Assembly (NCBI GenBank): GCA_964527765.1 | Contig: CAZGQR010000004.1 | Span: 83-64,082 of the forward strand | Length of the DNA stretch: 64,000 nt | Direction of reading: 5' to 3' | Source of the DNA: an uncultured Planctomycetia bacterium | GTDB taxonomy: Bacteria > Omnitrophota > Gorgyraeia > Tantalellales > Tantalellaceae | Shown here: in pieces, positions 2,626 through 64,000 of the stretch | Layout of the letters: each line of letters begins with the position of its first letter | How positions within the stretch are numbered: position 1 is the stretch's first letter | Program-made: the position numbers and the translations under genes | The notes under the pieces: model-generated | Told to the model about the DNA's origin: nothing | The model's database searches: none | What the model saw: only the letters and a program-made list of their open reading frames with translations

Positions 2626-3882
2626 ATGAACATGAAAAGACTAAAGTGGCTATACCCGGGGATGCTGATCAAGCGGTGGATATCTCTTTCCGTTTTCGGT
2701 ATCCTCATGATCTCGATGGGGTTTGTCATAGTTATTTCCGAACGTAACCCCGAGAACAAGGCCATAGCGGGCCTTATCATCATTCTGGGGATCCTGTGCG
2801 TGATAATCGCCGTGAAAAGGATACTGAAATCCTTCATGACGGTCCTGATGCCGGAACCGGAAATGGTCAAAAATACCCTGGTAGACAAGGTGTACGCGAA
2901 ACGCATATTAGAAAAAGGTCCGAAGATAGTCGTGATCGGAGGGGGAACAGGCCTTTCCACGCTTCTGACGGGATTGAAACAAAAGACCAGTAATATCACC
3001 GCGATAGTGACGGTAGCGGATGACGGCGGGTCTTCAGGGCGGCTGCGCGAGGAATACGGAGTGCTGCCTCCGGGAGATATACGGAACTGTCTTGTGGCGC
3101 TTGCGGATTCGGAAGACCTTCTCGGGGCGCTTTTTCAGTTCCGCTTTAAGGAAGGAAAAGCGCTGCAGGGCCATAATTTCGGCAATATTTTTATCACGGC
3201 CCTTTCCAAGATCACGGGGGATTTTGCCAAGGCCATCAAGGAGTCCAGCAAGGTCCTTGCTATCAGGGGAAATGTGTTCCCGGCTACCCTGGAGAAGGTC
3301 AAACTGGTGGCGAGAAGAGAGAACGGGAAAGAGACGGTCGGAGAATGCCATATACGCGAAGAAAAGAGCAGTCCCATAGACTGGCTTTTCCTAAGGCCGA
3401 ACGAGTGCAAAGCAACGCAGGAATCAGTGGAAGCCATACGTCAGGCGGATGCGATCGTTCTGGGCCCGGGCAGCCTGTATACCAGCGTGATGCCGAACCT
3501 TCTCATAGAAGGGATACAGAGGGAGATCATGAGATCCAGGGCTATCAAGATCTATATTTGCAATGTCATGACCGAGGCGGGGGAAACGGACGATTATTCG
3601 GTAAGCGACCATGTCAAGGCCATCATAAAGCATACCCGTCCGGGCGTGATAGATTATTGCATAGCAAATGTCATGCGCATCCCAAAAGACCTTTATGAAA
3701 AATATAAGCTTGAAGACAAGTTCCCGGTGAAGTTAAATGAAAATGACGAGAGATGGTTCAGGCAGGAAAAGATAACACTGGTAAAGGCGCATATCGCCAG
3801 CATGAAGGAATTCGTCAGGCATGATTCATTAAAGCTGAGCGATACGATCATGGATATCCTGAATGAGAGCAGGAGAAGGTGA
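2626..3882 (+). CDS. yvcK: YvcK/CofD-family gluconeogenesis factor with an N-terminal extension of about 90 aa carrying two TM helices
   Basis: Core KIVVIGGGTGLSTLL....TVADDGGSSGRLR is diagnostic of the UPF0052/YvcK family. Upstream are two hydrophobic helices (ISLSVFGILMISMGFVIVI and AIAGLIIILGILCVIIAV). A later Met at about 2836 would give a conventional soluble protein. Confidence 0.8.
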   Translation: MNMKRLKWLYPGMLIKRWISLSVFGILMISMGFVIVISERNPENKAIAGLIIILGILCVIIAVKRILKSFMTVLMPEPEMVKNTLVDKVYAKRILEKGPKIVVIGGGTGLSTLLTGLKQKTSNITAIVTVADDGGSSGRLREEYGVLPPGDIRNCLVALADSEDLLGALFQFRFKEGKALQGHNFGNIFITALSKITGDFAKAIKESSKVLAIRGNVFPATLEKVKLVARRENGKETVGECHIREEKSSPIDWLFLRPNECKATQESVEAIRQADAIVLGPGSLYTSVMPNLLIEGIQREIMRSRAIKIYICNVMTEAGETDDYSVSDHVKAIIKHTRPGVIDYCIANVMRIPKDLYEKYKLEDKFPVKLNENDERWFRQEKITLVKAHIASMKEFVRHDSLKLSDTIMDILNESRRR

Positions 3883-8814: not shown

Positions 8815-11234
<2,420 letters not shown>

Positions 11235-14468: not shown

Positions 14469-15140
14469 TTATAAGGTTCTTGCCAGCGTGAACCCCGATA
14501 CCTCTCTTGCTCCGGCGCGGAGCAGTTCCGCGGCGCATGCGTTGAGCGTGGCTCCCGTCGTAACTATATCATCCACCAGCATTACGGATCTTCCTGTGAG
14601 CCGCAGACGTTCGGTGACGGTAAAGGAATTCTTCAGGTTATTGATCCGGCTTTTCCCTGAAAGGCCGATCTGAGGCGCGGTGTTCTTTGTTTTGACGAGG
14701 ATAGAGAATGAGACCGGGGACGAGAGCCGTTCGGATATTACGCCCGAGATAAGTTCCGACTGGTTGTATCCCCTTGAAAAACGCCGGTTCGGATGGATAG
14801 GGACAGGAATGACCAGATCGACGGGGGCGGGCAGGGTCCTGCTCCCGTCGAAGTATTTGCGGATCATATCTTCAAAGACCGGTAACAGCTGCTGTTTTCC
14901 GCAGTATTTAAATTTTTTTATGCATTCTCTTACCGGACCTTCATAGGGGCGGCAGGACCATATTTTGTTAAGGTGCTCCAATGACCGGACCGGGGGAGGG
15001 TCCCCGGACAGGATCAGGTCTTTACACCCCCGGCATATCGGCAGGGGATAAGTAGCCGGCCTTTCACCGCACGCGATGCAATCGGAAGGCAATAATATAC
15101 TTATACACGACTGCAGTATTTGTACCGTTTGGGATTTCAA
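14469..15140 (-). CDS. comF: ComF-family phosphoribosyltransferase (competence protein F-like); 5' end uncertain
   Basis: N-terminal paired CxxC zinc ribbon (CIACG....CRGCKD) and C-terminal PRTase motif VMLVDDIVTTGATL. The listed ORF extends to 15245 through the RAYT 3' end and a REP copy. The only in-frame start candidate before the zinc ribbon is a TTG at 15138-15140. Confidence 0.65.
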   Translation of the reverse strand: MKSQTVQILQSCISILLPSDCIACGERPATYPLPICRGCKDLILSGDPPPVRSLEHLNKIWSCRPYEGPVRECIKKFKYCGKQQLLPVFEDMIRKYFDGSRTLPAPVDLVIPVPIHPNRRFSRGYNQSELISGVISERLSSPVSFSILVKTKNTAPQIGLSGKSRINNLKNSFTVTERLRLTGRSVMLVDDIVTTGATLNACAAELLRAGAREVSGFTLARTL

Positions 15141-15679
15141 GATTGCAAGTGTCCCCTTTTTTGTTCTATGAAAGTGTCCCCTAATGGGATAAAAGAACAA
15201 TCCATTTTCATCGGGTCTAAAATGTGTCTTTTTGATAATAGACACCGTTCTCTATAGCTGCTCCATTTATAGTCCGCGGGATCGTTGACTATACTGGCTC
15301 TTACGGGATTATTTTCAATATAAGTGGCGGCATTTACCAGGTAACGTCCTTTTATGATAGGGTGGTTTTTGAAGCGCCCCTGCCACAGATGTCCGACCTT
15401 TTGGTATTTAGTATTATGATATTCCGTATAACCACGGGTAAGCCAGTGCATCAATTTGGATATATTTTTAGATATATTCGCTTCTATTAGTAGATGAACA
15501 TGATTTGGCATAAGGCAATAGGCATATAGCATGATTTCGTATTTTCGTTTTGCCTTTTTAAGCGTGTGAATGTATTTTTCATAGTCCTCGTCGAGAAAGA
15601 ACACCTCTTGTTTTTGATTACCTCGAGTTGTAATATGGTAGCAGGCACAATCAATAAAGATCCTTGAGCTTCTTGGCAT
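15137..15679 (-). CDS. REP-associated tyrosine transposase (RAYT, IS200/IS605-like HuH Y1 transposase)
   Basis: MPRSSRIF..YHITTRG N-terminus, HVHLL (HuH) motif and C-terminal catalytic Tyr context DYKWSSYRE. Start trimmed to the conserved MPR.. Met (listed ORF starts 3 codons earlier at 15688). Confidence 0.8.
   Translation of the reverse strand: MPRSSRIFIDCACYHITTRGNQKQEVFFLDEDYEKYIHTLKKAKRKYEIMLYAYCLMPNHVHLLIEANISKNISKLMHWLTRGYTEYHNTKYQKVGHLWQGRFKNHPIIKGRYLVNAATYIENNPVRASIVNDPADYKWSSYRERCLLSKRHILDPMKMDCSFIPLGDTFIEQKRGHLQS
15147..15181. repeat. REP copies (2x AAGTGTCCCC = reverse complement of GGGGACACTT)
   Basis: 15147-15156 and 15172-15181, inverted relative to the copies at 15742-15779. 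Confidence 0.6.
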
Positions 15680-15741
15680 AAAAATCACCTCTTACTACTA
15701 TAGACAACTTTTATCGTAAAATTGTTTCAAAAAATATTGCA

Positions 15742-15779
15742 GGGGGACAGTTTCACCCTTAAAAAGGGGGACACTTTGG
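15742..15779. repeat. REP copies (GGGGGACAGTTTCACCC and GGGGGACACTTTGG)
   Basis: G-rich REP-like motifs upstream of the RAYT gene. The same GGGGACACTTTG motif recurs at 63978-63989. Confidence 0.6.
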
Positions 15780-15957
15780 AGTTTAAATCCCCAAACGGTA
15801 CAAGATGGGGATAGACACCGGGTGAGGGCGGATTCTTTCACCCTGTCGAAAATCCCGTTATAGCCTTTTCCGAGAGGGTTCGCCCTGAATTGTCTTGATT
15901 TTATGTCTTAATAAGTTAAAATAAACCTGAGCGTCGATTTACGCGGGAGCGTTACCT

Positions 15958-24858: not shown

Positions 24859-24904
24859 GGACGTTTTTCAAATTAAACCCAGACCGTAAGAAAATGTGAA
24901 CTTG

Positions 24905-24987
24905 GACCTGTCCCCGCGGTCAATCCTAGACCTGTCCCCAAGGTCGATCCTAGACCTGTCCCCATAGCCAATCTTAGACTTGTTCCC
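24905..24987. repeat. Tandem REP array, four copies of TAGACCTGTCCCC (the last degenerate)
   Basis: Copies at 24905-24915, 24927-24939, 24951-24963 and 24975-24987, spaced about 24 bp apart. Inverted counterparts lie at 25538-25576. Confidence 0.65.
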
Positions 24988-24993
24988 GATATT

Positions 24994-25473
24994 TTAAATT
25001 TTAAACTTATCCAAAATGTTATTTTTCTTATCTAAAACTCTGAATTTGTAGCTACACCAAGAATAATCTTCGGCCCTTTTACAGATATTAGCCCTAATTG
25101 GATTATACTCAATATATGAGATTATATTGATCAGATATTCGTCATTTTGAACCAGGAAGCTTTTATATCGATTTTGCCATAAGTGGCCACATTTATTGTA
25201 CTTGAAGTTATAGTATTGAGCATAAGATAAGTTTATTCTATGCATAATGTGTTTCAATGTTCCGGGTTTTATGGGGTTGATGAGTAAGTGCACATGATTC
25301 GGCATCAGGCAATAGGCATAGACTTTTACGCGGAATTTGCTTTTATATTTCCATAAGATGTGAAGATAGCGTTCAAAATCAGCACGCTCGAGGAAAACAT
25401 CTTCTTTACGAATACCCCGAGTGATTACATGGTAAGAAGAACTTTCAAAAAGAATTCTAGCAGTTCTGGCCAT
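24994..25473 (-). CDS. REP-associated tyrosine transposase (RAYT, IS200/IS605-like Y1 transposase), second copy
   Basis: MARTARILFESSSYHVITRG N-terminus, HVHLL HuH motif, C-terminal DYSWCSYKF catalytic Tyr context. About 50% identical to the copy at 15137-15679. Start trimmed to the conserved Met (listed ORF extends to 25524). Confidence 0.8.
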   Translation of the reverse strand: MARTARILFESSSYHVITRGIRKEDVFLERADFERYLHILWKYKSKFRVKVYAYCLMPNHVHLLINPIKPGTLKHIMHRINLSYAQYYNFKYNKCGHLWQNRYKSFLVQNDEYLINIISYIEYNPIRANICKRAEDYSWCSYKFRVLDKKNNILDKFKI

Positions 25474-25537
25474 AATTTCACCTCCTACCATTATTAGACG
25501 CAAAAAAGCGGGAAATTCTTTCAAAAAAATTAAAAAA

Positions 25538-25576
25538 GGGGACAGGTCTAGGATCGACCTTGGGGACAGGTCTGGG
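25538..25576. repeat. REP copies (2x GGGGACAGGTCT)
   Basis: Reverse complement of the TAGACCTGTCCCC copies at 24905-24987. Confidence 0.65.
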
Positions 25577-25619
25577 ATTAAAATTATTTACGGTCTGGGA
25601 ACAAAATGAGAAACGTCCC

Positions 25620-25648
25620 TTGACTTTTTGGGTTTTGTCGGGTAATAT
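25620..25648 (+). promoter_or_regulatory. sigma70-like promoter of clpB (TTGACT - 17 nt - TAATAT)
   Basis: -35 at 25620-25625 and -10 at 25643-25648, about 80 nt upstream of the clpB ATG. It immediately abuts the right inverted repeat of RAYT-REP unit 2. Confidence 0.45.
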
Positions 25649-48328: not shown

Positions 48329-51300
48329 ATGTTAAAGTTAAGAGAACTAAAAGTCATAGCTTTAGCGGTTGTGATCGCTTTTTCATTCCAGAATCTGACC
48401 TATGCCAATCCCGATCTTTTTGCCAAAAATAACCGGCAGGCATCAGATACGCTGGCGCCGGAGGGGCGTTTCCAGAATTACGGCGTTGAGGCGCAGAGCC
48501 TTATGTTCCTTGTCCGTGCGGCCCAGGAAGTTTTAGCGAAAAATATCAGGCCGGAAAAAGTAACCGATTTTATCAAGAACTCGCCCGCCCTGACCCCTGA
48601 AATAGAAGAGAAGATCGATTTTGGCCTTGTGAACATTGTCGGGGACAAATCGAACAAACTCCAAGTCGGCTATCGCGGAGAACAGGGAACGCATGTCATA
48701 ACTTTCAGCGAAAAGCCCGAGCATATCCGTGGCCGCATGCCTGATTCCGCCGGACGCGTGCAAATAGCCAATATTATCGTGGAGATCGACGTACCTTCGA
48801 AAGGCATAGAACAGCCGGGACAAGCCCCCGAGGGAGGCGCCCGGGATACACTTATAGATGAAGCAGAGGGCGATATCACAGGTGCCTCGGAAGGCGATAC
48901 CGCTATTCATAGCGGGAAAAGGCATGAGGGCAAGAAACAGTTCAGGGGGATATTCGGTATCGGGTACGGAAGATGGCTTGCCAAAAAGGTCAGCGGGGTG
49001 TTCGGCAAATGGCACGTTAAAAGAGAACCCGGGGTCAATGATGTTATAAGGAAATACTGGCGCAAAGGCAAGCCCTTAAAAGGATGCTCCGCCTGCTCGC
49101 CGGAAGAGATGTCATCCATAATGGCGGCCATCTATGCGACCATGAGCGGCAAAAAGGTGGGAACGAGCATCATCGCGAACGTGTACAAGGTCTATATCTA
49201 TGATATAGGCAGGAGAGACTTCTCCGGCGGCGTTACCACCCATTTCGGCATAAGGACCGGCACCATCCACATTACAAAGGAAGAATATGAGAGACTGAAA
49301 AAACTGGATGAACGGGAGCATGAGAAACTGGAGTCTTCGGACGAGATCCACTTTTATCACCTTGCCGCGAGAATAGCGCATGAAGTCACTGAAATAGACA
49401 GCTGGAGGAAAAAAGCCAAGGATCTTGTCGCCGAAAAGGCGATAGACAGGCTGGGGTCGATCAAGAGTAAGTACAGCGATGACTGGGCCAACGGCATAAG
49501 GAAATGGATAAGGGACAATTGCAATACGTCGGGCAAGGGAGCGGCCCAGCGGCTTGACAGGGAATTTCACAGAAAAGGGTTCGATCGGGAAGCCTGCATA
49601 CTTGCCGAGTCTCTCCTGGCTGAGAATATACTGGCCAGAAAAGGTATTTCGGACAAAGAGAAGTATTATGAAACGGTCATGAAATTGTCCCGTGAATTTT
49701 TGGAGAACGGAAAATATGACGATCTTGTCGCCGATCTGGGGTCTTCCGTAAGGATCCCCCGGGGAAAGCGCAGGGAAGCGTTCGATTCCATCGTGAACAC
49801 CCTCAAGCATTTTGATGATACCAGGGGCCGGGAAGTCTTTATCAATGTGCTGTATGCAAAGGCATCTTTCGAATATATACGCGCGCTGGACGGCGGCGTG
49901 GACAGTCTCTTGCAGAAGGATTGGAGTTTCAAGGACAAAAGCAGGGGGCTTGCGCGGCGAATGGATATTTTAAGGGAAAGTCTGGAAAAAGTAAAATATA
50001 TCGACAGTGTCTCGCGCGAAGAGATCGAGACCTGGATAGACGAGACAGGGACCAAGATAAGGGTCCCCCCTCCGGGTATAGACGCCAGGGAGGTAGACGC
50101 CCTCATCAGTATTTTTATGGAAGTGAGAAAGCTGCTTTCCGGCAGGAACCATATGCAGGAGTGGGACAAGATCTATCCAAGCGTCTTTGGTCCCGAGGAT
50201 CCGGCAAGGGAGCCGGATATCATCGGCGCCTCCGATCCGGGGGAAAGCCCGGATATTGCGAACAGCGATCCCAAAGGCCCGGAAGATACAATAAGGGCCC
50301 CGAGTCCGATCGAGCCGGACGAGATCAAGATCATCGATTTCGGCCTCGGAGAAATGAAGAGCGAGATAATATCCGAAAGCATCAGCCCCCAGAACGGTCC
50401 GGTGAAACCGCCCATGGACACCGATGCGGTGCTGAATATCCTGGAGAAGTATAAGAACTGGAATTACCGGTCCGTCAAGGGCAGGTCCACGGAGAAGAGA
50501 GAAATGACCACCGGGCGGTCGCGGATGAAAGATACCAGCCGGAAGCAAAAAGAAACCAGCCGGAAACTGGAGACCACCCAGGAGACGGCCGGGTACAAGT
50601 ATATATCAAGATTTTCGGACGATGCCATTCTCAGGGAAAAGGTCAAAAAGGCGCGCGGCAGCGCCAGGGACCTGATGAACAATCCCCTGATCCTGAGGTT
50701 GACCGAGGGGTCGAGGGATTTCAGGATGTATTATGGTTCGTCCACGGGCTATTTTGACGTGCTTGATGTCAGGAAAGACTATCCGCATATCCTTGATATC
50801 ACGATCCTGGTCGACGGCAAGAGGGACCCGATCCTCAGGGCTTATGGACAGGAAGAAATAAAAAAGATATCAGAGGGGATATCCGCGGAATTTTCAGACG
50901 TTAACAGGTTCAATCTGACCGTTGTCGGCATTGAGGATATGAGGGAAGCCTTTCGCAAAGGCTCCTCCATGTCTTCAGAGAAAAGCGCGGATCTTCAGCG
51001 CTTGTTCATCAAGCTTTATAAAGAGGATATCCAGATCGCCGGGTCCAACCTGATAGACGAGAGTTCCGGCTTTCTGTCAGAGCTTGACCACTTTGAGAGG
51101 ATCTATATCGCCGAGCTTGTATCAAAGTTCACCCAGATGGCGGCAATAAGAGAGGACATGGAAGGGCTTGAAAGACATATCGGGCTGAGCGCCGATGAGA
51201 AACAGGAGTTAAAAAAGCTCAGAGAAAACCATAATAAGACCAAACTGAAGATCGGGGAGCTGGAAACGCAGCAGGAGCGGGTCAACAACGCCATGGAGGC

Positions 51301-54300
51301 GCTTGACGGGAAGAGAAAGCAGCTGACGGGTGATCCTAAAAAGATCAAGGAAGCTACCAGAAAGATCCTTGCGGGGGAAGAGGTATCTGAAGATGAAGCA
51401 GGCCCTCTCGGCGAGGTCGTTGCCGAACTTGCCGGAAGGATCATCTCAGGAGAAAAAGTTCCCGAGGACGAGTTTGATCGCATGGCGGATGACATCAACA
51501 GGGCGGTCGCCGACTTTGACATCGATAAATTTAATCAGCAGGTAAAAACGATATCCCGTGAAGCGAATAAGGTAGCTGATGGACTGACGAAGTTGAATGG
51601 CCTTCTGAAGAGAGAGGAGGAACTGCGGATAAGGGAGCAGGGCGTGCCGCAGAGACTCGCCAGGCTTGAATTCGAAAGGTATAAAGTCGACCGGGATTGC
51701 GAACTTCTGTGCAAGAAGATAGAAGACGCGCAGTCCGGCCGCCCGCTCACTCAGGGTATCGTGATCAATAACAGGTATATCGTCATGGAAAAACTGGGCC
51801 AGGGCGGTTTCGGAGCGGTCTACCGCGTTCTTAACAAACAGACAGGCCAGGAGAAGGCCTTGAAGATCATCTTGCCTACCCGGCATATGGATCTTTCCAC
51901 GAGGATGCGGACCATGGCGGCGTTCAACAGGGAAGTGGAGAGCCATAACAGTCTCTGCGAAATACACGCTCAGGTGCCCGTGGTGGAAGCAAGGGGTGGT
52001 TACGCCGGGTCCCCGTATTTCGTAATGTCCCTTGAGAAAGGCCTGACGCTTAAAGAGATACACCAGAAGCTGGTAAACGGCAGTCTGCGGTTGAGCATGC
52101 GCGAAAAACTCATACTTATGCATGCCGTGATGAAAGCGGTTGCGACGATTCACAGCGGGGGATATATTCACAGGGACCTGAAACCAGAAAATATCATGAT
52201 CCCGGCCAACGAGGACGGCACCATAGCGTTTCCGGGCAATATCCATGAGCCTGAATTTCTCGCCAGCACCCGTTATGACGCGTTTGTGAGGAGAGTGACT
52301 ATCCTGGACCTGGGAAGGGCCGTTCGCGGCGAAAAAACCGACGAAGAGGACGATATCGCCCTGATCGAGGATATTAACAGGACCATGGTCACGGGCCAGT
52401 TCATCGTGGGAACGCCGCATTTTATGGCTCCCGAACAGTTCAAAAAAGAAGCTATCAGCAGTTTCGCTGACGTTTACGCCCTGGGGATCACGTTCTATCT
52501 GATCTTCAGCCATCATTACCCCATAGCGGACGGCGAGAGGATGTTCGCGGTCATCGCCTCGAAACATGTGGATATGGAACTGGCCCCGGAACCGCTGTGC
52601 GAAATAATAGAAAGAGAGAACGAAAGACTGCGTCAGGTAAGGGCCCAAAACCGTCTTGTGGACAAAAAGCGTCTGGACGCGATCAGGGAGGACCTGACGG
52701 ACGCGCTGGTAGCGCAGAAAGCCCCGGACAGAAGGGTCATTATCGTCTCATCCAGAAGGGACGGCCGAAGGCGCATGCAGTGGCTTACCGAGGTGCTTGA
52801 CGAAAGCATCCTGAGAGAACGGCTCGCAAGAATGCAGGATCCTGACAGCGGTGAGCGCCTGGTCACCGATGAAGAGATCGACAGGATCGTAGCGCTCGTT
52901 ATCCTCAAGCTTCCACAGACCGACGGCCTCATAGAAGCATTGATCCAGCAGATGCTGGAGAAATACCAGGGAGGGCGCCCGACCACCGAAGATGTGATCC
53001 AGGAGATGGAAAAGTATTTGACCGACAGAAAAGATGCGATGATCTACAGAAGCCGCGATGAAAAGATAAAGGAAGAAGCCCTGGAAGGCGTGGAGACGTC
53101 CCAGGACGCGAAAGCAAGACTGGCCGGGGTGAACAAGAAGATCGGCGAGCTGACGATTCAATATAAAAGCGAAACGGACACGACAAAAAAGGCTAAGATC
53201 AGGAAACTCCTGGAGATACAGGAAAAGAAGGGACAGGTGCTCGAAGAGGCCGCGACAACATTGAGGAGGGAAGGAAGCGTTGTGAGGGCCGCCAAGTGGC
53301 TCCAGAATCATACCGCTCTGCTGGCGGCTGTTGCCGCGGGTGCTGTCCTGCTCCTGGCGGCCATCGTGGCGACCCTTGTCGTTCTGTACCGGTCGGCTGT
53401 CAGTGAAAGGCAGGCCGCGCGCAAAGCTGCCGAGACAGCGAAGGCCGAAAGGACAAAAGCGCTCGAGGACAAGGAAAAAGCCCTGAAAGAGGTCGTAGTA
53501 GCCGAAAGCAGGCTGCAGGAACTTAACAAGATCAAGGAAGAACTCTCGGGGAGCCTGCTCGAGCTGGAGCAAAAGAAGGGTACCGCCCTGAAGGAGCAGG
53601 CCACGTTATCCGAACAGATAAAAGACCTTAAGGAGAGGGCGGAAAAAGCCGCCGAACTTGAGGAAACGATATTAAAGCTGGAAGAGCAGGAAAAGGCCTT
53701 AAAGCAAAAAGAAAAGGAATTGAACGAAAAGGTCGAGAAAACAGAAACCGGGCTCAAAGAAAAGACGGCCGCGCTTGAAAAGGCGCAAAAAGAACTCGCA
53801 AGGTACAGGGAAAGCATGCCGGGTGTTTTCGAGGATGCCAAGGCGAAAGCCGCAAAACTGGAAGCCGACGAGGCCATACATATCATAGAGGTAGGGGGAG
53901 AGCGGTGGTGGTGGAGCATAGACGAGACCACCCTGAAGCAGTTCACGCTCGGGTTCGACGAAGTCTCGAGGATCATGGTAAATAACGGCCAGTTCGATGA
54001 AGCCATCAGACTGGAGGAAAGAAGGATAGATTGGCTGGTCGATATGGCCGACTGGCGAGACACGGAAGCGGAAAAACTTTCCTTTGTAAAGGAAATAATA
54101 AAAAGTCAGGTTGCCGTAATAAATATTCACAGGGCGAAAGGAAGTTACGACGCGGCAGAGAAGCTTGCAAAGGAACTTATGAATAAGAACGAATACAAGG
54201 CATCGAAGGAGTGGATGGAGCTTTTGAGGGATTGTCTCATCGAGGTAGTTCTCGAAAATGCCGCGCTGGAGACGATACCTGCGAAGAGACAACAGAAATT

Positions 54301-57300
54301 GCTGGAAGCGGAAAAGCTGGTCAAACAGGTCGAATCCGAGGAAAAAAGAAATCTTCATCTCGGAAATATTTTCCTTATCAGGCCGGATCTCGGGAATGCC
54401 TTAAAGTATTTTGAGACCTATTACAACCTCTGGTTGAAAAAAGCCGGAGAAGAAGGGATATCCGCCGGCGTGAAAAACCAAAGGCAGCATGAAGCGGCTC
54501 AAGGGATCTTGTTAAGCGCGGTGACCCATAAAATGCAGGCCGAGATCCATAAAGGCAAAAACGACCCCGAAAATATGGAAAAAGCCTGTGATGCCGCGGA
54601 AAAACTGCTGGAAAAGATAGTAAAAGAGTTTGCCAAAGATAAAGACATCCAGGCCTGGGCGCTATTCTTGAAAGGTGAGACAGCGCGTCTTAAAGGAGAC
54701 CTGGAAAGATCAAAAGGGATATACGAGCAGGCGGAGTTCAGCGCGCATGATACCGAACAAAAATTGCTGGCAGCGATCATTTGCGCAAGGCTCGGGAAAA
54801 AAATCGCATGGAACAACATGACAAAGACCTGGGAGGCGCTGATATCAGGGAAGATCCCCGTCCCCGCGCCGTATATAAAGGAAGTCAAGGAGCTGCTCGT
54901 GGAAGGGACAGAAAAATACCGCAAGGGCATCGAAGATGCTAAACGCAGGGCGGAAGAAGAAAGGATAAAAGAAGAGCTCAGAAAGAAGCAGGAAGCCGAA
55001 GCGAAAGAGATCAGGAAAGAGGCACTGGAAGGCGTGGAGAAGGCAAAGGACGCGGAGAATAAACTGGTTCAGATAAACAGCGAGATCGCCGCGTTGGAAG
55101 CCGCGCTGGACAAGGAACAGGACGAATCGAAAAGAAAGGATATTCAGAAACAGCTGGACAGGGCGAAGAAAAAGAAACAGGTGCTTGGGGCGGAAAAAGA
55201 AAAGCTGGAAAAACAGGAAGCCGAAAGTAAAGCCAGGGAAGAGTTCAGGAAAAAGGTATTAGAAGGCATAAAGACATCGAAAGACGCAAAAGTCAGGCTG
55301 GTCGGGATCAACAAGGAGATCGGCACCCTGACGGGCAACCTGCGCACGGAAGAGAATAAAAGCAAAAGAGCGCAGATGGAAAAACAGCTGCAGGAGGCAA
55401 AAGAGAAAAAGAAAATACTGGAAGAAGCCAGGGACAGGCTGGAAAAAGAGGAAGCCGAGCGCAAAGCGGAAGAGGAGTTCAGGAAAGAGGTCCTGAAGAA
55501 CGTGAAAACGCCGGCGGACGCGGAAGCCGAACTTACCAAAATCAACGCCGAGATCGGCACGCTCAAAGGCAAGCTGGGCGCGACGGAAGACCAGCCCGAG
55601 AAGGAAGAGATCCAGAAACAGCTGGACAGGGCAGAGAAGGCGAAAAAGGTGCTGGAAGAGGAAAAGAAAGCCCTGGAGGAAAGAGAGGCGGAAGCCGAGC
55701 GCAAAGCGGAAGAAGAGTTCAGAAAAGAGGTCCTGAAGGATATTAAGACACTGGCGGAAGCAAAGGCCAGACTGGAGGGGCTGAATAAAGATATAGGAAC
55801 GCTGACGGATAAGCTGTCCTCGGCAAAGGATGAGGAAAAAGCGGAAATAGAGTCAGGATTGGAAAAAGCAAAGAAGACAAAACAAGTGCTTGAAGAGGCC
55901 ATAAAGAAGCTGGAGGAGGCCAGGCCCGAGAAGGAGACCCCCGATCCCGATAAAACCCCGGAACCCGGGAAAAAAGACGCTTCACAATCAGGCATGGCCC
56001 CGGTTCCGCAGATACCTATCGCAAATGATGTTTCCAGAGCGCCTGACCACAGGCTGCTCAATGCCGTTATCAAGTGCGCCATTGATGAGGCATTGTTCGA
56101 CCGTCTCGAAAAGCGGGATGATGACACGATCACGGTCTTTGTTTTCGGGGACGATAGCTGCAGGAATTTTGGCGATGTTTATGAGCGCCTGGAGAACAAG
56201 GTAAGGGTGAGCGAGATGTTCAAGGCGGCGTGCAGGGCTGACAGCGTGCCGTCGGAAATAATGCCCATGCTGCACGAGACCGGGATGGCAAACCTTCATA
56301 ATGTTTCGGGCCATGCCGGCATTGAAAATTCGACGATTTATGCCGTAAAAGGCGTTCCGAACCTGGAAGTTCTCATAAATCATGAAAAAGAGGAAATGAG
56401 GATTCATCAGAAGCACGCGGCCGGGTTCGCCGGCCTTGGTTCGTGGGAAGAAGTCCCGAAAATCGAACGGCGCGGTCTCATACAATTAATGAGGAAACGA
56501 GGAGGCGGGTGCAATGTTTTTGCCATGTTCGCCCACAAGCGGGCTAACAAAAAATTCCCGGTTTCCGGGAACAGCGAACTTATTCCGGACAGCATGGAAG
56601 AAAGAAAATTGGCCGATACTATAGGAAAACATTATCAGGTCCCCGTGGCCGGGGGAGCTGAAACACGGGAAGACTTGACCCCCGGGGCGGCCCTAAAAGC
56701 TCTTTTGGGGATCGTAAAGAAGATCTCGGGTAAACTGGTCTCTTCTTTTGCTCCGGCTCCGGTAAAGTGCCTTCGGGATCGTTCCCGCACGGATGCCGGA
56801 GAAGGTGTTATCATCTTTGCTGATGATATCGTGGACCACTCCGCGGTATTTGACCTGGACAGGGTGGCCAAAACCATGGGCAGGCCCGAAAGCATCCTGC
56901 GCACGGTCGTGCTATACGCGAAGAACGCAAAAAAGGCCGAGCTTGTCGCAGAAATAATAAAGAACGCCAATCCGAAGGCCGACGTCGAGATGATCCTGGA
57001 TAAGGATGTCAGGGAACATTACGACGAGGAGTATTATTCGACGTCGCAGGTAGAAGCTGTCGTGCGATATTCGATGAACAGGAAAAGCGGGATATTCACG
57101 CAAGCCAGCCAGATACTCGGCGTCATAAGAGGCCCTCTTTCGGCGGGTGAGAGTGAGGAAGCCCTGAGAGAGGAGCTTAAGAGAAGTTCGCTGAGAGTTC
57201 CCGTGGTTATTTTTGAAAATAGCGCCAAAGGCAATATTTATTCCGTGATGCAGGCCCTGGCGAAACTCATTGAACGCGGACGCCTTTCAGAGGACGGATG

Positions 57301-57400
57301 GCTCTTTGTCCTCCCCCCGATCACGCGCATTTCCGACATTCTGCAGAAAGAATACGAGCTGTACAGGACCATGGTCAAGGCCCTGGAAGCGGCAGCATAA
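48329..57400 (+). CDS. Giant 3,023-aa multidomain protein: signal peptide, N-region of about 1,100 aa with no recognised domain, Hanks-type Ser/Thr kinase domain, TM helix, tandem coiled-coil repeats, and C-domain of about 450 aa with no recognised domain
   Basis: Uninterrupted 9,072-nt ORF. Signal peptide MLKLRELKVIALAVVIAFSFQNLTYA. Kinase motifs GQGGFGAVY / ALKII / HRDLKPEN / DLG / MAPEQF at aa about 1150-1420. TM LLAAVAAGAVLLLAAIVATLVVLY at aa about 1663-1688. Repeats are E/K-rich, about 75 aa each. Confidence 0.85.
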   Translation: MLKLRELKVIALAVVIAFSFQNLTYANPDLFAKNNRQASDTLAPEGRFQNYGVEAQSLMFLVRAAQEVLAKNIRPEKVTDFIKNSPALTPEIEEKIDFGLVNIVGDKSNKLQVGYRGEQGTHVITFSEKPEHIRGRMPDSAGRVQIANIIVEIDVPSKGIEQPGQAPEGGARDTLIDEAEGDITGASEGDTAIHSGKRHEGKKQFRGIFGIGYGRWLAKKVSGVFGKWHVKREPGVNDVIRKYWRKGKPLKGCSACSPEEMSSIMAAIYATMSGKKVGTSIIANVYKVYIYDIGRRDFSGGVTTHFGIRTGTIHITKEEYERLKKLDEREHEKLESSDEIHFYHLAARIAHEVTEIDSWRKKAKDLVAEKAIDRLGSIKSKYSDDWANGIRKWIRDNCNTSGKGAAQRLDREFHRKGFDREACILAESLLAENILARKGISDKEKYYETVMKLSREFLENGKYDDLVADLGSSVRIPRGKRREAFDSIVNTLKHFDDTRGREVFINVLYAKASFEYIRALDGGVDSLLQKDWSFKDKSRGLARRMDILRESLEKVKYIDSVSREEIETWIDETGTKIRVPPPGIDAREVDALISIFMEVRKLLSGRNHMQEWDKIYPSVFGPEDPAREPDIIGASDPGESPDIANSDPKGPEDTIRAPSPIEPDEIKIIDFGLGEMKSEIISESISPQNGPVKPPMDTDAVLNILEKYKNWNYRSVKGRSTEKREMTTGRSRMKDTSRKQKETSRKLETTQETAGYKYISRFSDDAILREKVKKARGSARDLMNNPLILRLTEGSRDFRMYYGSSTGYFDVLDVRKDYPHILDITILVDGKRDPILRAYGQEEIKKISEGISAEFSDVNRFNLTVVGIEDMREAFRKGSSMSSEKSADLQRLFIKLYKEDIQIAGSNLIDESSGFLSELDHFERIYIAELVSKFTQMAAIREDMEGLERHIGLSADEKQELKKLRENHNKTKLKIGELETQQERVNNAMEALDGKRKQLTGDPKKIKEATRKILAGEEVSEDEAGPLGEVVAELAGRIISGEKVPEDEFDRMADDINRAVADFDIDKFNQQVKTISREANKVADGLTKLNGLLKREEELRIREQGVPQRLARLEFERYKVDRDCELLCKKIEDAQSGRPLTQGIVINNRYIVMEKLGQGGFGAVYRVLNKQTGQEKALKIILPTRHMDLSTRMRTMAAFNREVESHNSLCEIHAQVPVVEARGGYAGSPYFVMSLEKGLTLKEIHQKLVNGSLRLSMREKLILMHAVMKAVATIHSGGYIHRDLKPENIMIPANEDGTIAFPGNIHEPEFLASTRYDAFVRRVTILDLGRAVRGEKTDEEDDIALIEDINRTMVTGQFIVGTPHFMAPEQFKKEAISSFADVYALGITFYLIFSHHYPIADGERMFAVIASKHVDMELAPEPLCEIIERENERLRQVRAQNRLVDKKRLDAIREDLTDALVAQKAPDRRVIIVSSRRDGRRRMQWLTEVLDESILRERLARMQDPDSGERLVTDEEIDRIVALVILKLPQTDGLIEALIQQMLEKYQGGRPTTEDVIQEMEKYLTDRKDAMIYRSRDEKIKEEALEGVETSQDAKARLAGVNKKIGELTIQYKSETDTTKKAKIRKLLEIQEKKGQVLEEAATTLRREGSVVRAAKWLQNHTALLAAVAAGAVLLLAAIVATLVVLYRSAVSERQAARKAAETAKAERTKALEDKEKALKEVVVAESRLQELNKIKEELSGSLLELEQKKGTALKEQATLSEQIKDLKERAEKAAELEETILKLEEQEKALKQKEKELNEKVEKTETGLKEKTAALEKAQKELARYRESMPGVFEDAKAKAAKLEADEAIHIIEVGGERWWWSIDETTLKQFTLGFDEVSRIMVNNGQFDEAIRLEERRIDWLVDMADWRDTEAEKLSFVKEIIKSQVAVINIHRAKGSYDAAEKLAKELMNKNEYKASKEWMELLRDCLIEVVLENAALETIPAKRQQKLLEAEKLVKQVESEEKRNLHLGNIFLIRPDLGNALKYFETYYNLWLKKAGEEGISAGVKNQRQHEAAQGILLSAVTHKMQAEIHKGKNDPENMEKACDAAEKLLEKIVKEFAKDKDIQAWALFLKGETARLKGDLERSKGIYEQAEFSAHDTEQKLLAAIICARLGKKIAWNNMTKTWEALISGKIPVPAPYIKEVKELLVEGTEKYRKGIEDAKRRAEEERIKEELRKKQEAEAKEIRKEALEGVEKAKDAENKLVQINSEIAALEAALDKEQDESKRKDIQKQLDRAKKKKQVLGAEKEKLEKQEAESKAREEFRKKVLEGIKTSKDAKVRLVGINKEIGTLTGNLRTEENKSKRAQMEKQLQEAKEKKKILEEARDRLEKEEAERKAEEEFRKEVLKNVKTPADAEAELTKINAEIGTLKGKLGATEDQPEKEEIQKQLDRAEKAKKVLEEEKKALEEREAEAERKAEEEFRKEVLKDIKTLAEAKARLEGLNKDIGTLTDKLSSAKDEEKAEIESGLEKAKKTKQVLEEAIKKLEEARPEKETPDPDKTPEPGKKDASQSGMAPVPQIPIANDVSRAPDHRLLNAVIKCAIDEALFDRLEKRDDDTITVFVFGDDSCRNFGDVYERLENKVRVSEMFKAACRADSVPSEIMPMLHETGMANLHNVSGHAGIENSTIYAVKGVPNLEVLINHEKEEMRIHQKHAAGFAGLGSWEEVPKIERRGLIQLMRKRGGGCNVFAMFAHKRANKKFPVSGNSELIPDSMEERKLADTIGKHYQVPVAGGAETREDLTPGAALKALLGIVKKISGKLVSSFAPAPVKCLRDRSRTDAGEGVIIFADDIVDHSAVFDLDRVAKTMGRPESILRTVVLYAKNAKKAELVAEIIKNANPKADVEMILDKDVREHYDEEYYSTSQVEAVVRYSMNRKSGIFTQASQILGVIRGPLSAGESEEALREELKRSSLRVPVVIFENSAKGNIYSVMQALAKLIERGRLSEDGWLFVLPPITRISDILQKEYELYRTMVKALEAAA
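54963..55935 (+). repeat. About four tandem copies of a coiled-coil repeat of about 225-240 nt (75-80 aa) within the giant gene
   Basis: Repeated EEFRKEVLK..K...A.A.L..IN.EIGTL.G.L......K..I.KQLD.A.K.K.VLEE...LE..EAE.KA units, with recurring nt strings such as GAAGAGTTCAGGAAAGAGGTCCTGAAG. A diverged copy lies before the TM helix at about 53065-53275. A spurious antisense ORF at 55144-56133 is a by-product. Confidence 0.75.
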
Positions 57401-62644: not shown

Positions 62645-63973
62645 ATGAAAAAAGAACGGCCGAAACTGCTTGTCGCGGATAAAAAGGGCAGGATCCGCGA
62701 CGTGCCCTATCTTGAAGCGACGGGCATGAAGGGCGGGGAATATTTCCGTCTGGATCCCGGGAATCTCGTGAAACTGCATCCGGACAGCGAGTTTTTCATG
62801 CTTCCGGACAGAAGACCGGTGGGTTATGACCCCCAAGCCGGACGATTCGTCCAGCTGGAACATGAGCCCTTTGCCGGGCGAAGTGAACCCGCCCGCGCGG
62901 TGGCGGCTTTTCTCCCGCCCGGATACACGGTGACGCACAGCGCTTCGTACCACGAACGCGGGAGAGCCCGGATATTGCCGCTTTTCAGCTATGCGGCAGT
63001 GGCTTTTTACAGGAACGGGTTTTATGCTGCCGGCGTGCGCGTTGACCGGGAAAAGCGCCAGGAACTTAAAGGTATGAACGCCGGGGAGCTCCGGAAGAAC
63101 GTCAGGTTGTTCAGGAAACTTTTTCCGAAGAACAGGCTTGTGCGGCATCTTGAAACATGCGCTCTTACTTACGGGTGCCCGGCAGCCAAGAATTTTTTCC
63201 TTAAAAGATATGAGGGCCCGCTTCCGATATCACCGGCGTGCAACGCCAGGTGTATAGGGTGCATATCCTATCAGCCCGGGAAAGAATGTTTTGTCACGCA
63301 GCCGCGCATTACTTTTGTCCCCGCGCCGGAGGAAGTCGCGGAAGTCGCGCTTTTTCACCTGAAAGAGGTCCGGGACCCCGTTGTGAGTTTCGGTCAGGGG
63401 TGCGAGGGGGAACCGCTCATGGCGGGGGAGGTTCTGGAAAAAGCGGTGAGAATGATAAGAAGATCCACCTCAAAAGGCATCGTCAATCTCAATACCAACG
63501 CGAGTCGCCCCGACATTGTCCGCCGGCTTTTCGAAGAAGGGCTGGATTCCATGCGCGTGAGCGTGAACAGCGTCCGCGAATCCTGCTATTCGGATTACTA
63601 CCTGCCGCGCGGGTACGGTTTTCGGGATGTCCTGAGGTCGATAAACAGCGCCAAGAAGGCAGGCGGGTTCGTTTCGATCAACTATCTTGTCATGCCGGGT
63701 TTTACGGATTCCCGAGAGGAGGCCGGGGCACTGCTGTGTTTTCTGAAAAGAACAGGAGTCGACATGGTCCAGTGGCGGAACCTGAATTACGATCCCTTGG
63801 CTTATTTCAGGAAGTTGCGCACCCCGGTAAAACGGGAGGACATGGTCGGAGTGGATACTCTTGTCAGGATGGTCGAGAAGGAATGTCCGCATGTCATGAA
63901 GGGGTACTTTAACCCGTCGAAAGAGCGCATGAAACGGGCAGAGAAAAAATTGGAGGGACACCTTCAAGCTTAA
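62645..63973 (+). CDS. Radical SAM domain protein with an N-terminal extension of about 190 aa and no assigned function
   Basis: CNARCIGC (CxxxCxxC) at aa about 197-204 and a downstream GQGCEGEPL glycine-rich SAM-binding-like motif. 442 aa. Confidence 0.65.
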   Translation: MKKERPKLLVADKKGRIRDVPYLEATGMKGGEYFRLDPGNLVKLHPDSEFFMLPDRRPVGYDPQAGRFVQLEHEPFAGRSEPARAVAAFLPPGYTVTHSASYHERGRARILPLFSYAAVAFYRNGFYAAGVRVDREKRQELKGMNAGELRKNVRLFRKLFPKNRLVRHLETCALTYGCPAAKNFFLKRYEGPLPISPACNARCIGCISYQPGKECFVTQPRITFVPAPEEVAEVALFHLKEVRDPVVSFGQGCEGEPLMAGEVLEKAVRMIRRSTSKGIVNLNTNASRPDIVRRLFEEGLDSMRVSVNSVRESCYSDYYLPRGYGFRDVLRSINSAKKAGGFVSINYLVMPGFTDSREEAGALLCFLKRTGVDMVQWRNLNYDPLAYFRKLRTPVKREDMVGVDTLVRMVEKECPHVMKGYFNPSKERMKRAEKKLEGHLQA

Positions 63974-63977
63974 AAAA

Positions 63978-63989
63978 GGGGACACTTTG
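63978..63989. repeat. REP copy (GGGGACACTTTG) at the 3' window edge
   Basis: Identical core to the REP at 15766-15779 (AAAAAGGGGGACACTTTGG versus AAAAAAGGGGACACTTTGC). Suggests a third REP/RAYT unit begins just beyond the window. Confidence 0.5.
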
Positions 63990-64000
63990 CCGATTAATAT

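Follow-up and report, generated by a model that had tools for sequence, protein, structure and literature searches.

The 64,000-nucleotide (nt) stretch analysed here, referred to as the window, belongs to contig CAZGQR010000004.1 of an uncultured bacterium of the phylum Omnitrophota (assembly GCA_964527765.1) and carries at 15120-15803 a compact 684-bp segment, unit 1, which is most probably a TIRtron (probability of roughly 0.8). In this reading, a single-copy transposase gene of the TIRYT type is bracketed by two inverted, non-palindromic units of ~62 nt that also exist as dispersed copies and on which the enzyme is presumed to act in trans. TIRtrons were named by Di Nocera, De Gregorio & Rocco (2013, BMC Genomics 14:522, PMC3733652), who found that many genes resembling those of RAYTs (tyrosine transposases associated with repetitive extragenic palindromes, REPs) have long terminal inverted repeats (TIRs), and not REPs, at their flanks, and who called the corresponding enzymes TIRYTs. 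Many of these TIRs share the sequence GGGGWSAS, described as unrelated to GTAG REPs, and some genomes contain moderately abundant TIR families whose copies are single, dimeric or grouped (PMC3733652). The consensus was later restated as GGGG[AT][CG]A[CG] by Quentin et al. (2018, PMC6006769), and most TIRYTs were placed in transposase subclass 2.1, in which no REP hairpins were found. Because the box of unit 1 fits this consensus and its architecture matches the published description, the finding is that of a TIRtron and not of a new REP class. It is a known kind of element in a phylum where it is undescribed, as a search of the literature library retrieved no TIRYT or TIRtron report linked to Omnitrophota.

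Anatomy of the flanking repeat units

Read outward from the gene, each unit of ~62 nt is composed of an inner GGGGACAS box, an A-run with an outer GGGGACAS box 24 nt further on (25 on one side), a 16-nt variable stretch and the terminal sequence CAAACGGTACAA. On the 5' side of the gene, these parts correspond to the inner box GGGGACAG (15743-15750), the A-run with the outer box GGGGACAC (15761-15774) and the terminal CAAACGGTACAA (15792-15803). On the 3' side they appear as reverse complements, namely the inner GGGGACAC of 15174-15181, the A-run and outer GGGGACAC of 15149-15162, and the terminal CAAACGGTACAA of 15120-15131. The transposase open reading frame (ORF), whose product ends in ...RGHLQS*, also shares its last ~15 codons and its stop codon with the 3'-side TIR, inside which the adjacent comF-like gene has its predicted start, a TTG at 15140.

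The inverted arrangement is extensive. At the outer ends, the 14-nt sequence TTGTACCGTTTGGG (15120-15133) has its exact reverse complement at 15790-15803, and a search of the 64 kb that tolerated up to two mismatches returned these two matches and no others (0.30 expected). Ungapped, the arms of the inverted repeat span 43 nt at 79% identity; with three small gaps, they reach ~63-66 nt per side (15120-15185 versus 15740-15803). The outer inverted repeats first described as 21 bp long are therefore present, but they form part of considerably longer arms. Compared with one another, the flanks show 77% identity. Lower GC content inside the element, which had likewise been pointed out at the outset, is confirmed: unit 1 has a GC fraction of 0.38, compared with 0.513 for the window and 0.53 and 0.49 for the 1-kb flanks, and values this low are reached in just 0.8% of 684-bp windows, all of them within unit 1 or a second RAYT unit.

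The initial annotation had interpreted the motifs around the gene as REP hairpins in inverted orientation, forming a RAYT-REP or bacterial interspersed mosaic element (BIME) system. The motifs indeed occupy the positions given (AAGTGTCCCC at 15147 and 15172, GGGGACAG at 15743 and GGGGACAC at 15767) and are inverted about the gene, but the hairpins are absent. Folding of both flanks and of single units, on both strands and with DNA parameters, gave structures no better than those of dinucleotide shuffles (z between -1.5 and +1.3), and RNAalifold, applied to an alignment of 15 units drawn from six genomes, predicted not a single conserved base pair. A GT[AG]G foot is likewise missing from the flanks of unit 1, and an Rfam search of the whole window returned nothing at this locus. 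The flanks are non-palindromic units, not REP hairpins. The REP core sequence regarded initially as different, and hence new, is accounted for as well, since GGGGACAC and GGGGACAG fit the GGGGWSAS box published for TIRtrons (PMC3733652, PMC6006769).

Just beyond the right end of unit 1, the sequence at 15827-15865 comprises GGCGGATTCTTTCACCCT, which resembles the inner part of the 5'-side TIR (78% over 18 nt), followed by GAAAATCCCGTTATAGCC. This segment, which gives no match to the unit profile, may be a decayed and internally deleted third unit.

Table 1. Positions of unit 1, its parts and related features (window coordinates unless a relative's sequence is named).
Feature	Position	Strand	Remarks
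TIR unit, 3' side of gene	15120..15185	minus, read outward	Profile match 15181-15118, 54.0 bits, E 9.7e-16
TIRYT/RAYT-family Y1 HuH tyrosine transposase gene	15137..15679	minus	180 aa from ATG
Leader and putative promoter region	15680..15742	minus	Between gene start and 5'-side TIR; putative function
TIR unit, 5' side of gene	15743..15803	plus, read outward	Profile match 15743-15804, 64.2 bits, E 6.7e-19
Second, diverged TIRtron (unit 2)	24859..25620	minus	Weak match to unit 1 profile, E 0.003
Solo copy of the 62-nt unit, no transposase gene	63955..64000	plus	Profile match 63955-63998, 39.7 bits, cut by window end
Direct repeats outside TIRtrons of relatives	L136 ~9800-9855, 10560-10585; L139 ~9790-9853, 10562-10595		

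The transposase of unit 1

The protein encoded by unit 1 consists of a conserved core of ~165 aa and a tail that is encoded by the TIR. The presence of a Y1 transposase ORF at this site, as initially annotated, is borne out by a Pfam match to PF01797 (Y1_Tnp) over residues 14-124 (60 bits, cutoff 23; E 3.3e-16). The same search revealed no domain besides Y1_Tnp, and a C-terminal helix-turn-helix (HTH)-like domain was not found. Among NCBIfam models, the protein passes REP_Tyr_transpos (NF047646, REP-associated tyrosine transposase) with 87 bits against a cutoff of 80, whereas it fails transpos_IS200 (NF033573) with 24 bits against a cutoff of 55; its earlier designation as an IS200-like Y1 (HuH) enzyme is thus retained with respect to Y1/HuH and replaced by the RAYT branch with respect to IS200. 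A search of the PDB yielded a sole and marginal match, E. coli TnpA_REP (4ER8, E 5e-4), in whose alignment the HuH and tyrosine motifs of the unit 1 protein are matched to HMH and YIYINP.

The key residues include the HuH motif H60-V-H62, the W99-Q100 pair, the catalytic-type tyrosine motif Y120-IEN-N124-P125 and W139-S-S-Y142. In an alignment of 32 homologues, H60, H62, W99, Q100, Y120, N124 and P125 are invariant. The arrangement Y-x3-NP is the signature of class 2, i.e. the RAYT branch, while Y-x3-Q characterizes IS200 subclass 1.1 (Quentin et al. 2018, PMC6006769). By these sequence tests, the ORF encodes a Y1/HuH transposase of the RAYT branch and not of IS200. Its position within this branch is less typical. 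Members of subclass 2.1 have a median length of 238 aa, a C-terminal HTH-like domain and a Y motif of the form YIELNP or Y[IV]HLNP (Quentin et al. 2018, PMC6006769). By these published patterns, the unit 1 protein departs from subclass 2.1 in its ~165-aa core, in the possession of Y1_Tnp only and in its motif YIENNP, which fits the subclass 2.4 pattern YIxNNP at least as well as the YIELNP of subclass 2.1.

All homologues that bear a source name come from Candidatus Omnitrophota, which makes it very probable that the window is of this phylum as well. The homologue clusters are small, with 1-13 contigs per cluster. RAYT-family genes in general are known from many phyla and well outside Proteobacteria (PMC5581495, PMC6006769), at variance with the initial statement that such systems are described mainly in the latter. 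The leader of the unit 1 gene contains a ribosome-binding site (RBS), GAGGTG, and a TATAGACA-like motif at 15698-15708 that recurs at the equivalent place in orthologues. A consensus promoter scan of the minus strand at unit 1 returned nothing convincing, and the terminator scan was uninformative.

Copies of the repeat unit and orthologous elements

A profile built with nhmmer from 15 units identified a solo copy of the 62-nt unit at the far end of the window, which is complete in the overlapping contig L011 (11311-11372: AGGGACACCTTCAAGCTTAAAAAAGGGGACACTTTGCCGATTAATATCGCAAACGGTACAAAA; 60.8 bits, E 7.5e-18). The repeat accordingly recurs elsewhere in the genome, the point on which the initial annotation had made its reading depend, and unit 1 is not fully self-contained, as had been assumed, because at least one loose copy lies 48 kb away. 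This copy is situated between a radical-SAM gene and a Peptidase_S11 gene. The former takes its final codons and its stop (...LEGHLQA*) from this copy, in which the predicted RBS-like GGGGA and TTG start of the latter are also found. The explanation of the match at 63969-63989 as a chance RBS and TTG start was ruled out, since the profile recovers a full-length unit. Gene ends and starts called inside repeat units may represent either annotation artefacts or real co-option.

The transposase gene itself appears at one site only. An identical protein is encoded on 19 contigs from several metagenomes, invariably between DoxX and comF, and a search for an empty site through the DoxX neighbour found none, the gene being present on 14/14 contigs with this DoxX. 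Since carrying contigs always show the order DoxX-gene-comF, the gene is regarded as fixed at one site and not as part of a multi-copy insertion sequence (IS). Its sole paralogue in the window is 43% identical and is associated with its own repeats. This second gene (24994-25473, minus strand) belongs to the diverged unit 2, whose flanks are built of tandem 24-nt modules containing GGGGACAGGTCT, of which the 3' side has 3-4 and the 5' side has 2, and whose outer inverted repeats are GGACGTTT..CCCAGACCGT. Unit 2 is the lowest-GC segment of the window, with a coding sequence of 34% GC, and its repeat was not encountered there as loose copies.

Five orthologues were compared, designated L136 (from the NCBI Omnitrophota metagenome-assembled genome GCA_034723315.1), L137/138, L139/140, L142 and L095 (from Ca. 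Aadella gelida). Their proteins share 60-75% identity with that of unit 1 (tblastn matches), and their gene neighbourhoods are unrelated, all sites being non-syntenic. In 4/5 of them (L136, L137, L139 and L142), an inverted 62-nt unit is found on both sides of the gene, and the orthologue units keep the 24-nt box spacing, the 16-nt distance from the outer box to the terminal sequence, and a terminal AAACGGTACAA. In Ca. Aadella gelida, the 3' unit abuts the gene, and the 5' copy is partial, interrupted and split from the gene by a cinA-like gene.

Direct repeats occur a few to 17 nt beyond both TIRtron ends in L136 (19 nt, 18/19 identical) and L139 (26 nt, 25/26 identical). An ordinary target-site duplication would be shorter than these repeats, and their absence from the window copy and from L142 shows that they are no general feature. 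In L137, a mini-copy at ~10,655-10,730, about 130 nt past the right end of the TIRtron, consists of the outer ~28 nt of the left TIR and ~17 nt of its outside flank, followed immediately by ~32 nt from the outer part of the right TIR. It has the appearance of a derivative that has lost its interior and lies beside the full element.

Gene-less copies are also found in relatives. A scan of species-representative genomes with the 18-nt box pattern AAAAARGGGGACACTTKS returned at least 119 stretches, mostly single chance matches and, among those listed, none from the organism of the window. In Ca. Aadella gelida, however, at least eight matches correspond to at least seven solo copies and the gene-adjacent copy. 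Over 57-62 nt these solo copies share 96-100% identity; they are sharply bounded on either side, where the flanks are unrelated, and reside in gaps between long ORFs. In the present genome, a single solo copy was detected in ~83 kb. A scan of a metagenome collection lacking this organism, with a pattern representing the TIR ends of its genome, returned 3 stretches, all from other organisms (L141-L143). Of these, L143 is a solo copy from the same metagenome as the gene-bearing L142. In L141 (849-981, Hainich groundwater), two inverted units, placed back-to-back and separated by 9 nt, lie without a gene between convergent ORFs. This dimer folds as one long hairpin (-45.5 kcal/mol, z = -10.6). 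An inverted dimer of this kind, comparable to the REP doublets forming hairpins (REPINs), was not seen in the window; L141, in a relative, is the only instance.

A different short repeat, GCGCCGAGGACGTAATGTCCGAGGTGTGTCGAAAC..GTTTCGACG, with a small inverted repeat of its own, was noticed in Ca. Aadella gelida at L095 2899-2998 and L042 ~2640-2720. It constitutes a second repeat family in this organism, interrupting the inverted TIR copy upstream of the transposase gene in L095 and adjoining a solo unit in L042. Several features of the loci are separate from the repeats. The window contains at 48329-57400 an ORF of 3023 aa with protein-kinase domains, and genes called at 3,111 and 10,963 residues adjoin the TIRtron of L136; giant genes are a reported trait of Omnitrophota. 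The sole Rfam matches in the window are two tRNA genes on the plus strand (1866-1938 and 1994-2066).

Interpretation, proposed mechanism and significance

The resemblance to published TIRtrons extends over several levels. Like them, unit 1 combines a RAYT-like Y1 gene with long TIRs that take the place of REP hairpins and overlap the gene end. Each TIR carries two boxes, and GGGGACAC and GGGGACAG fit GGGGWSAS exactly. Loose single copies (in the window and L011, Ca. Aadella gelida and L143) and a dimer (L141) accompany the gene-bearing elements, and several diverged TIRYT genes with TIRs of their own can coexist in a genome, two being present in this window. The host phylum, here Omnitrophota, is a difference. 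The comparison with the published description covers the gene, the TIRs with their box, the loose copies and the coexisting diverged genes.

Several observations weigh against this interpretation. Most published TIRYTs of subclass 2.1 are longer and possess a C-terminal HTH, whereas the unit 1 protein is short and lacks one. Only one solo copy was detected in this genome, no further gene-less copies being found in the rest of the window, 10 kb downstream or 9.1 kb upstream (~83 kb in total). That copy is only 78-79% identical to either flank of unit 1, and thus gives no sign of recent activity in this genome. Within 10 kb of the orthologues L136-L140, no solo copies were found. The Y1 enzymes IS608 TnpA and E. 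coli TnpA_REP read DNA hairpins; as a single unit here forms no hairpin, recognition must either differ or need two inverted units. To our knowledge, no TIRYT has been studied biochemically, and TIRtrons have scarcely been followed up since they were named in 2013.

Three other explanations were weighed against the TIRtron reading. The one that retains most merit, although it is improbable, is an autonomous IS in which the whole 684-bp TIR-gene-TIR segment moves as one and gene-less units are decay products or abortive events. Such an element would agree with the occurrence of orthologues in unrelated contexts across species, with the low GC of both window units (the lowest in the window, 38% versus 51%), which suggests horizontal arrival, with the 19-26-nt direct repeats just outside both ends in L136 and L139, and with the internally deleted mini-copy next to the full L137 copy. 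It is difficult to reconcile with a single-copy gene that occupies one fixed site wherever a contig carries it, with homologue clusters of so few contigs, and with the lack of flanking direct repeats at the window copy and L142. It is further weakened by the solo copies of Ca. Aadella gelida, whose near-identity and equal, sharp boundaries at unrelated loci are better explained by propagation of the unit than by independent decay.

A canonical REPtron, in which a RAYT would act on palindromic REPs of a new sequence, read by stem-loop with a guide tetranucleotide and dispersed as hundreds of REPs or BIMEs, is still less probable. The NCBIfam model that the protein passes, its sole solved relative (E. 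coli TnpA_REP) and the inverted flanks with a copy elsewhere in the genome all point in this direction, but the reading is largely refuted by the folding and alignment results, because single units fold no better than shuffles and the 15 units hold no conserved pair. Moreover, the units have no GT[AG]G foot and measure 62 nt against 20-40 nt for a typical REP, they are sparse in the ~83 kb covered (a single solo copy), and their box conforms to GGGGWSAS, which has been called unrelated to GTAG REPs (PMC3733652). Membership in IS200/IS605, which would imply a TnpA_IS200 with subterminal hairpins, was suggested by the Pfam Y1_Tnp match and a weak NCBIfam IS200 match. This assignment is refuted by a model score well short of the cutoff, by Y-x3-NP in place of Y-x3-Q, by inverted-repeat ends without hairpins, and by the occurrence of one copy without tnpB, and its probability is negligible.

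The TIRtron of unit 1 nevertheless has traits in common with these better-known systems. With the E. coli REPtron (TnpA_REP, 4ER8) it shares the enzyme branch (HuH, WQ and Y-x3-NP), a single-copy gene, inverted cognate repeats and intergenic dispersal. The protein similarity is marginal, and the REPs of E. coli are 20-40-nt hairpins with a GTAG foot that number in the hundreds, while the units described here are 62 nt long, unstructured and few in the sequence covered. The REPIN-RAYT systems of Pseudomonas (Bertels & Rainey 2011; Bertels et al. 2017) are similar in having one domesticated-looking transposase per repeat family, several RAYT-repeat pairs per genome and inverted doublets that form long hairpins, comparable to the L141 dimer. 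In the genomes sampled here, solo units dominate and dimers are exceptional; in addition, the orthologues are non-syntenic and the low GC hints at horizontal movement, whereas the Group 2 and Group 3 RAYTs are said to be vertically inherited. With IS200/IS608, the common ground is limited to the Y1 HuH catalytic core and a presumed single-strand nick-and-join chemistry, as the subterminal hairpins, absence of inverted repeats, multi-copy state, Y-x3-Q motif and frequent tnpB of those elements have no counterpart in unit 1.

For the TIRtron, a mechanism can be proposed in which the enzyme would identify its cognate unit by the GGGGACAS boxes. If it works as TnpA_REP and IS608 TnpA do, it would nick and rejoin one DNA strand by means of Y120, the metal being held by the HuH histidines. 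Cutting might take place at or near the conserved ends, of which the outer is ...GGTACAA and the inner lies immediately ahead of the inner box. Being the invariant parts of the unit, both boxes and the terminal sequence would be the obvious determinants of recognition and cleavage. A unit free of hairpins may be read by direct sequence or, as the L141 dimer and the two ends of a TIRtron would allow, through inverted pairs. The 62-nt units or their inverted dimers would occasionally be copied or moved in trans to new intergenic sites, as has been proposed for RAYTs and REPs or REPINs; that the unit itself is copied is suggested by the solo copies of Ca. Aadella gelida, whose boundaries are sharp and identical. 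The gene would stay in place within a lineage and be relocated or exchanged only over longer times, and such relocation or exchange of the whole gene unit is suggested by the non-syntenic orthologues and the low GC.

A more ambitious version of this proposal, which is regarded as rather unlikely, holds that a minimal Y1 HuH enzyme of ~165 aa without an accessory DNA-binding domain mobilizes the 62-nt unit singly and by sequence, through the two direct boxes and the terminal sequence, and that the system is active and horizontally exchanged among Omnitrophota, with units co-opted as gene ends and starts. If it were true, sequence-directed recognition would set this enzyme apart from the hairpin-guided TnpA of IS200/IS608 and from E. 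coli TnpA_REP. Independently of this version, the family offers a clean test case, given a very small enzyme and a sharply bounded 62-nt unit with two invariant boxes and an invariant end, and natural solo, dimeric and gene-flanking forms of this unit exist across several Omnitrophota genomes. Otherwise, unit 1 is an element of an expected kind that leaves current understanding unchanged. Its practical consequence is that gene callers place starts and stops inside the units, as seen for comF, the Peptidase_S11 gene, the radical-SAM gene and the tail of the transposase. With respect to the biology of the group, the TIRtron of unit 1 adds an uncultured phylum, one of ultra-small bacteria, to the known range of RAYT-type repeat systems.

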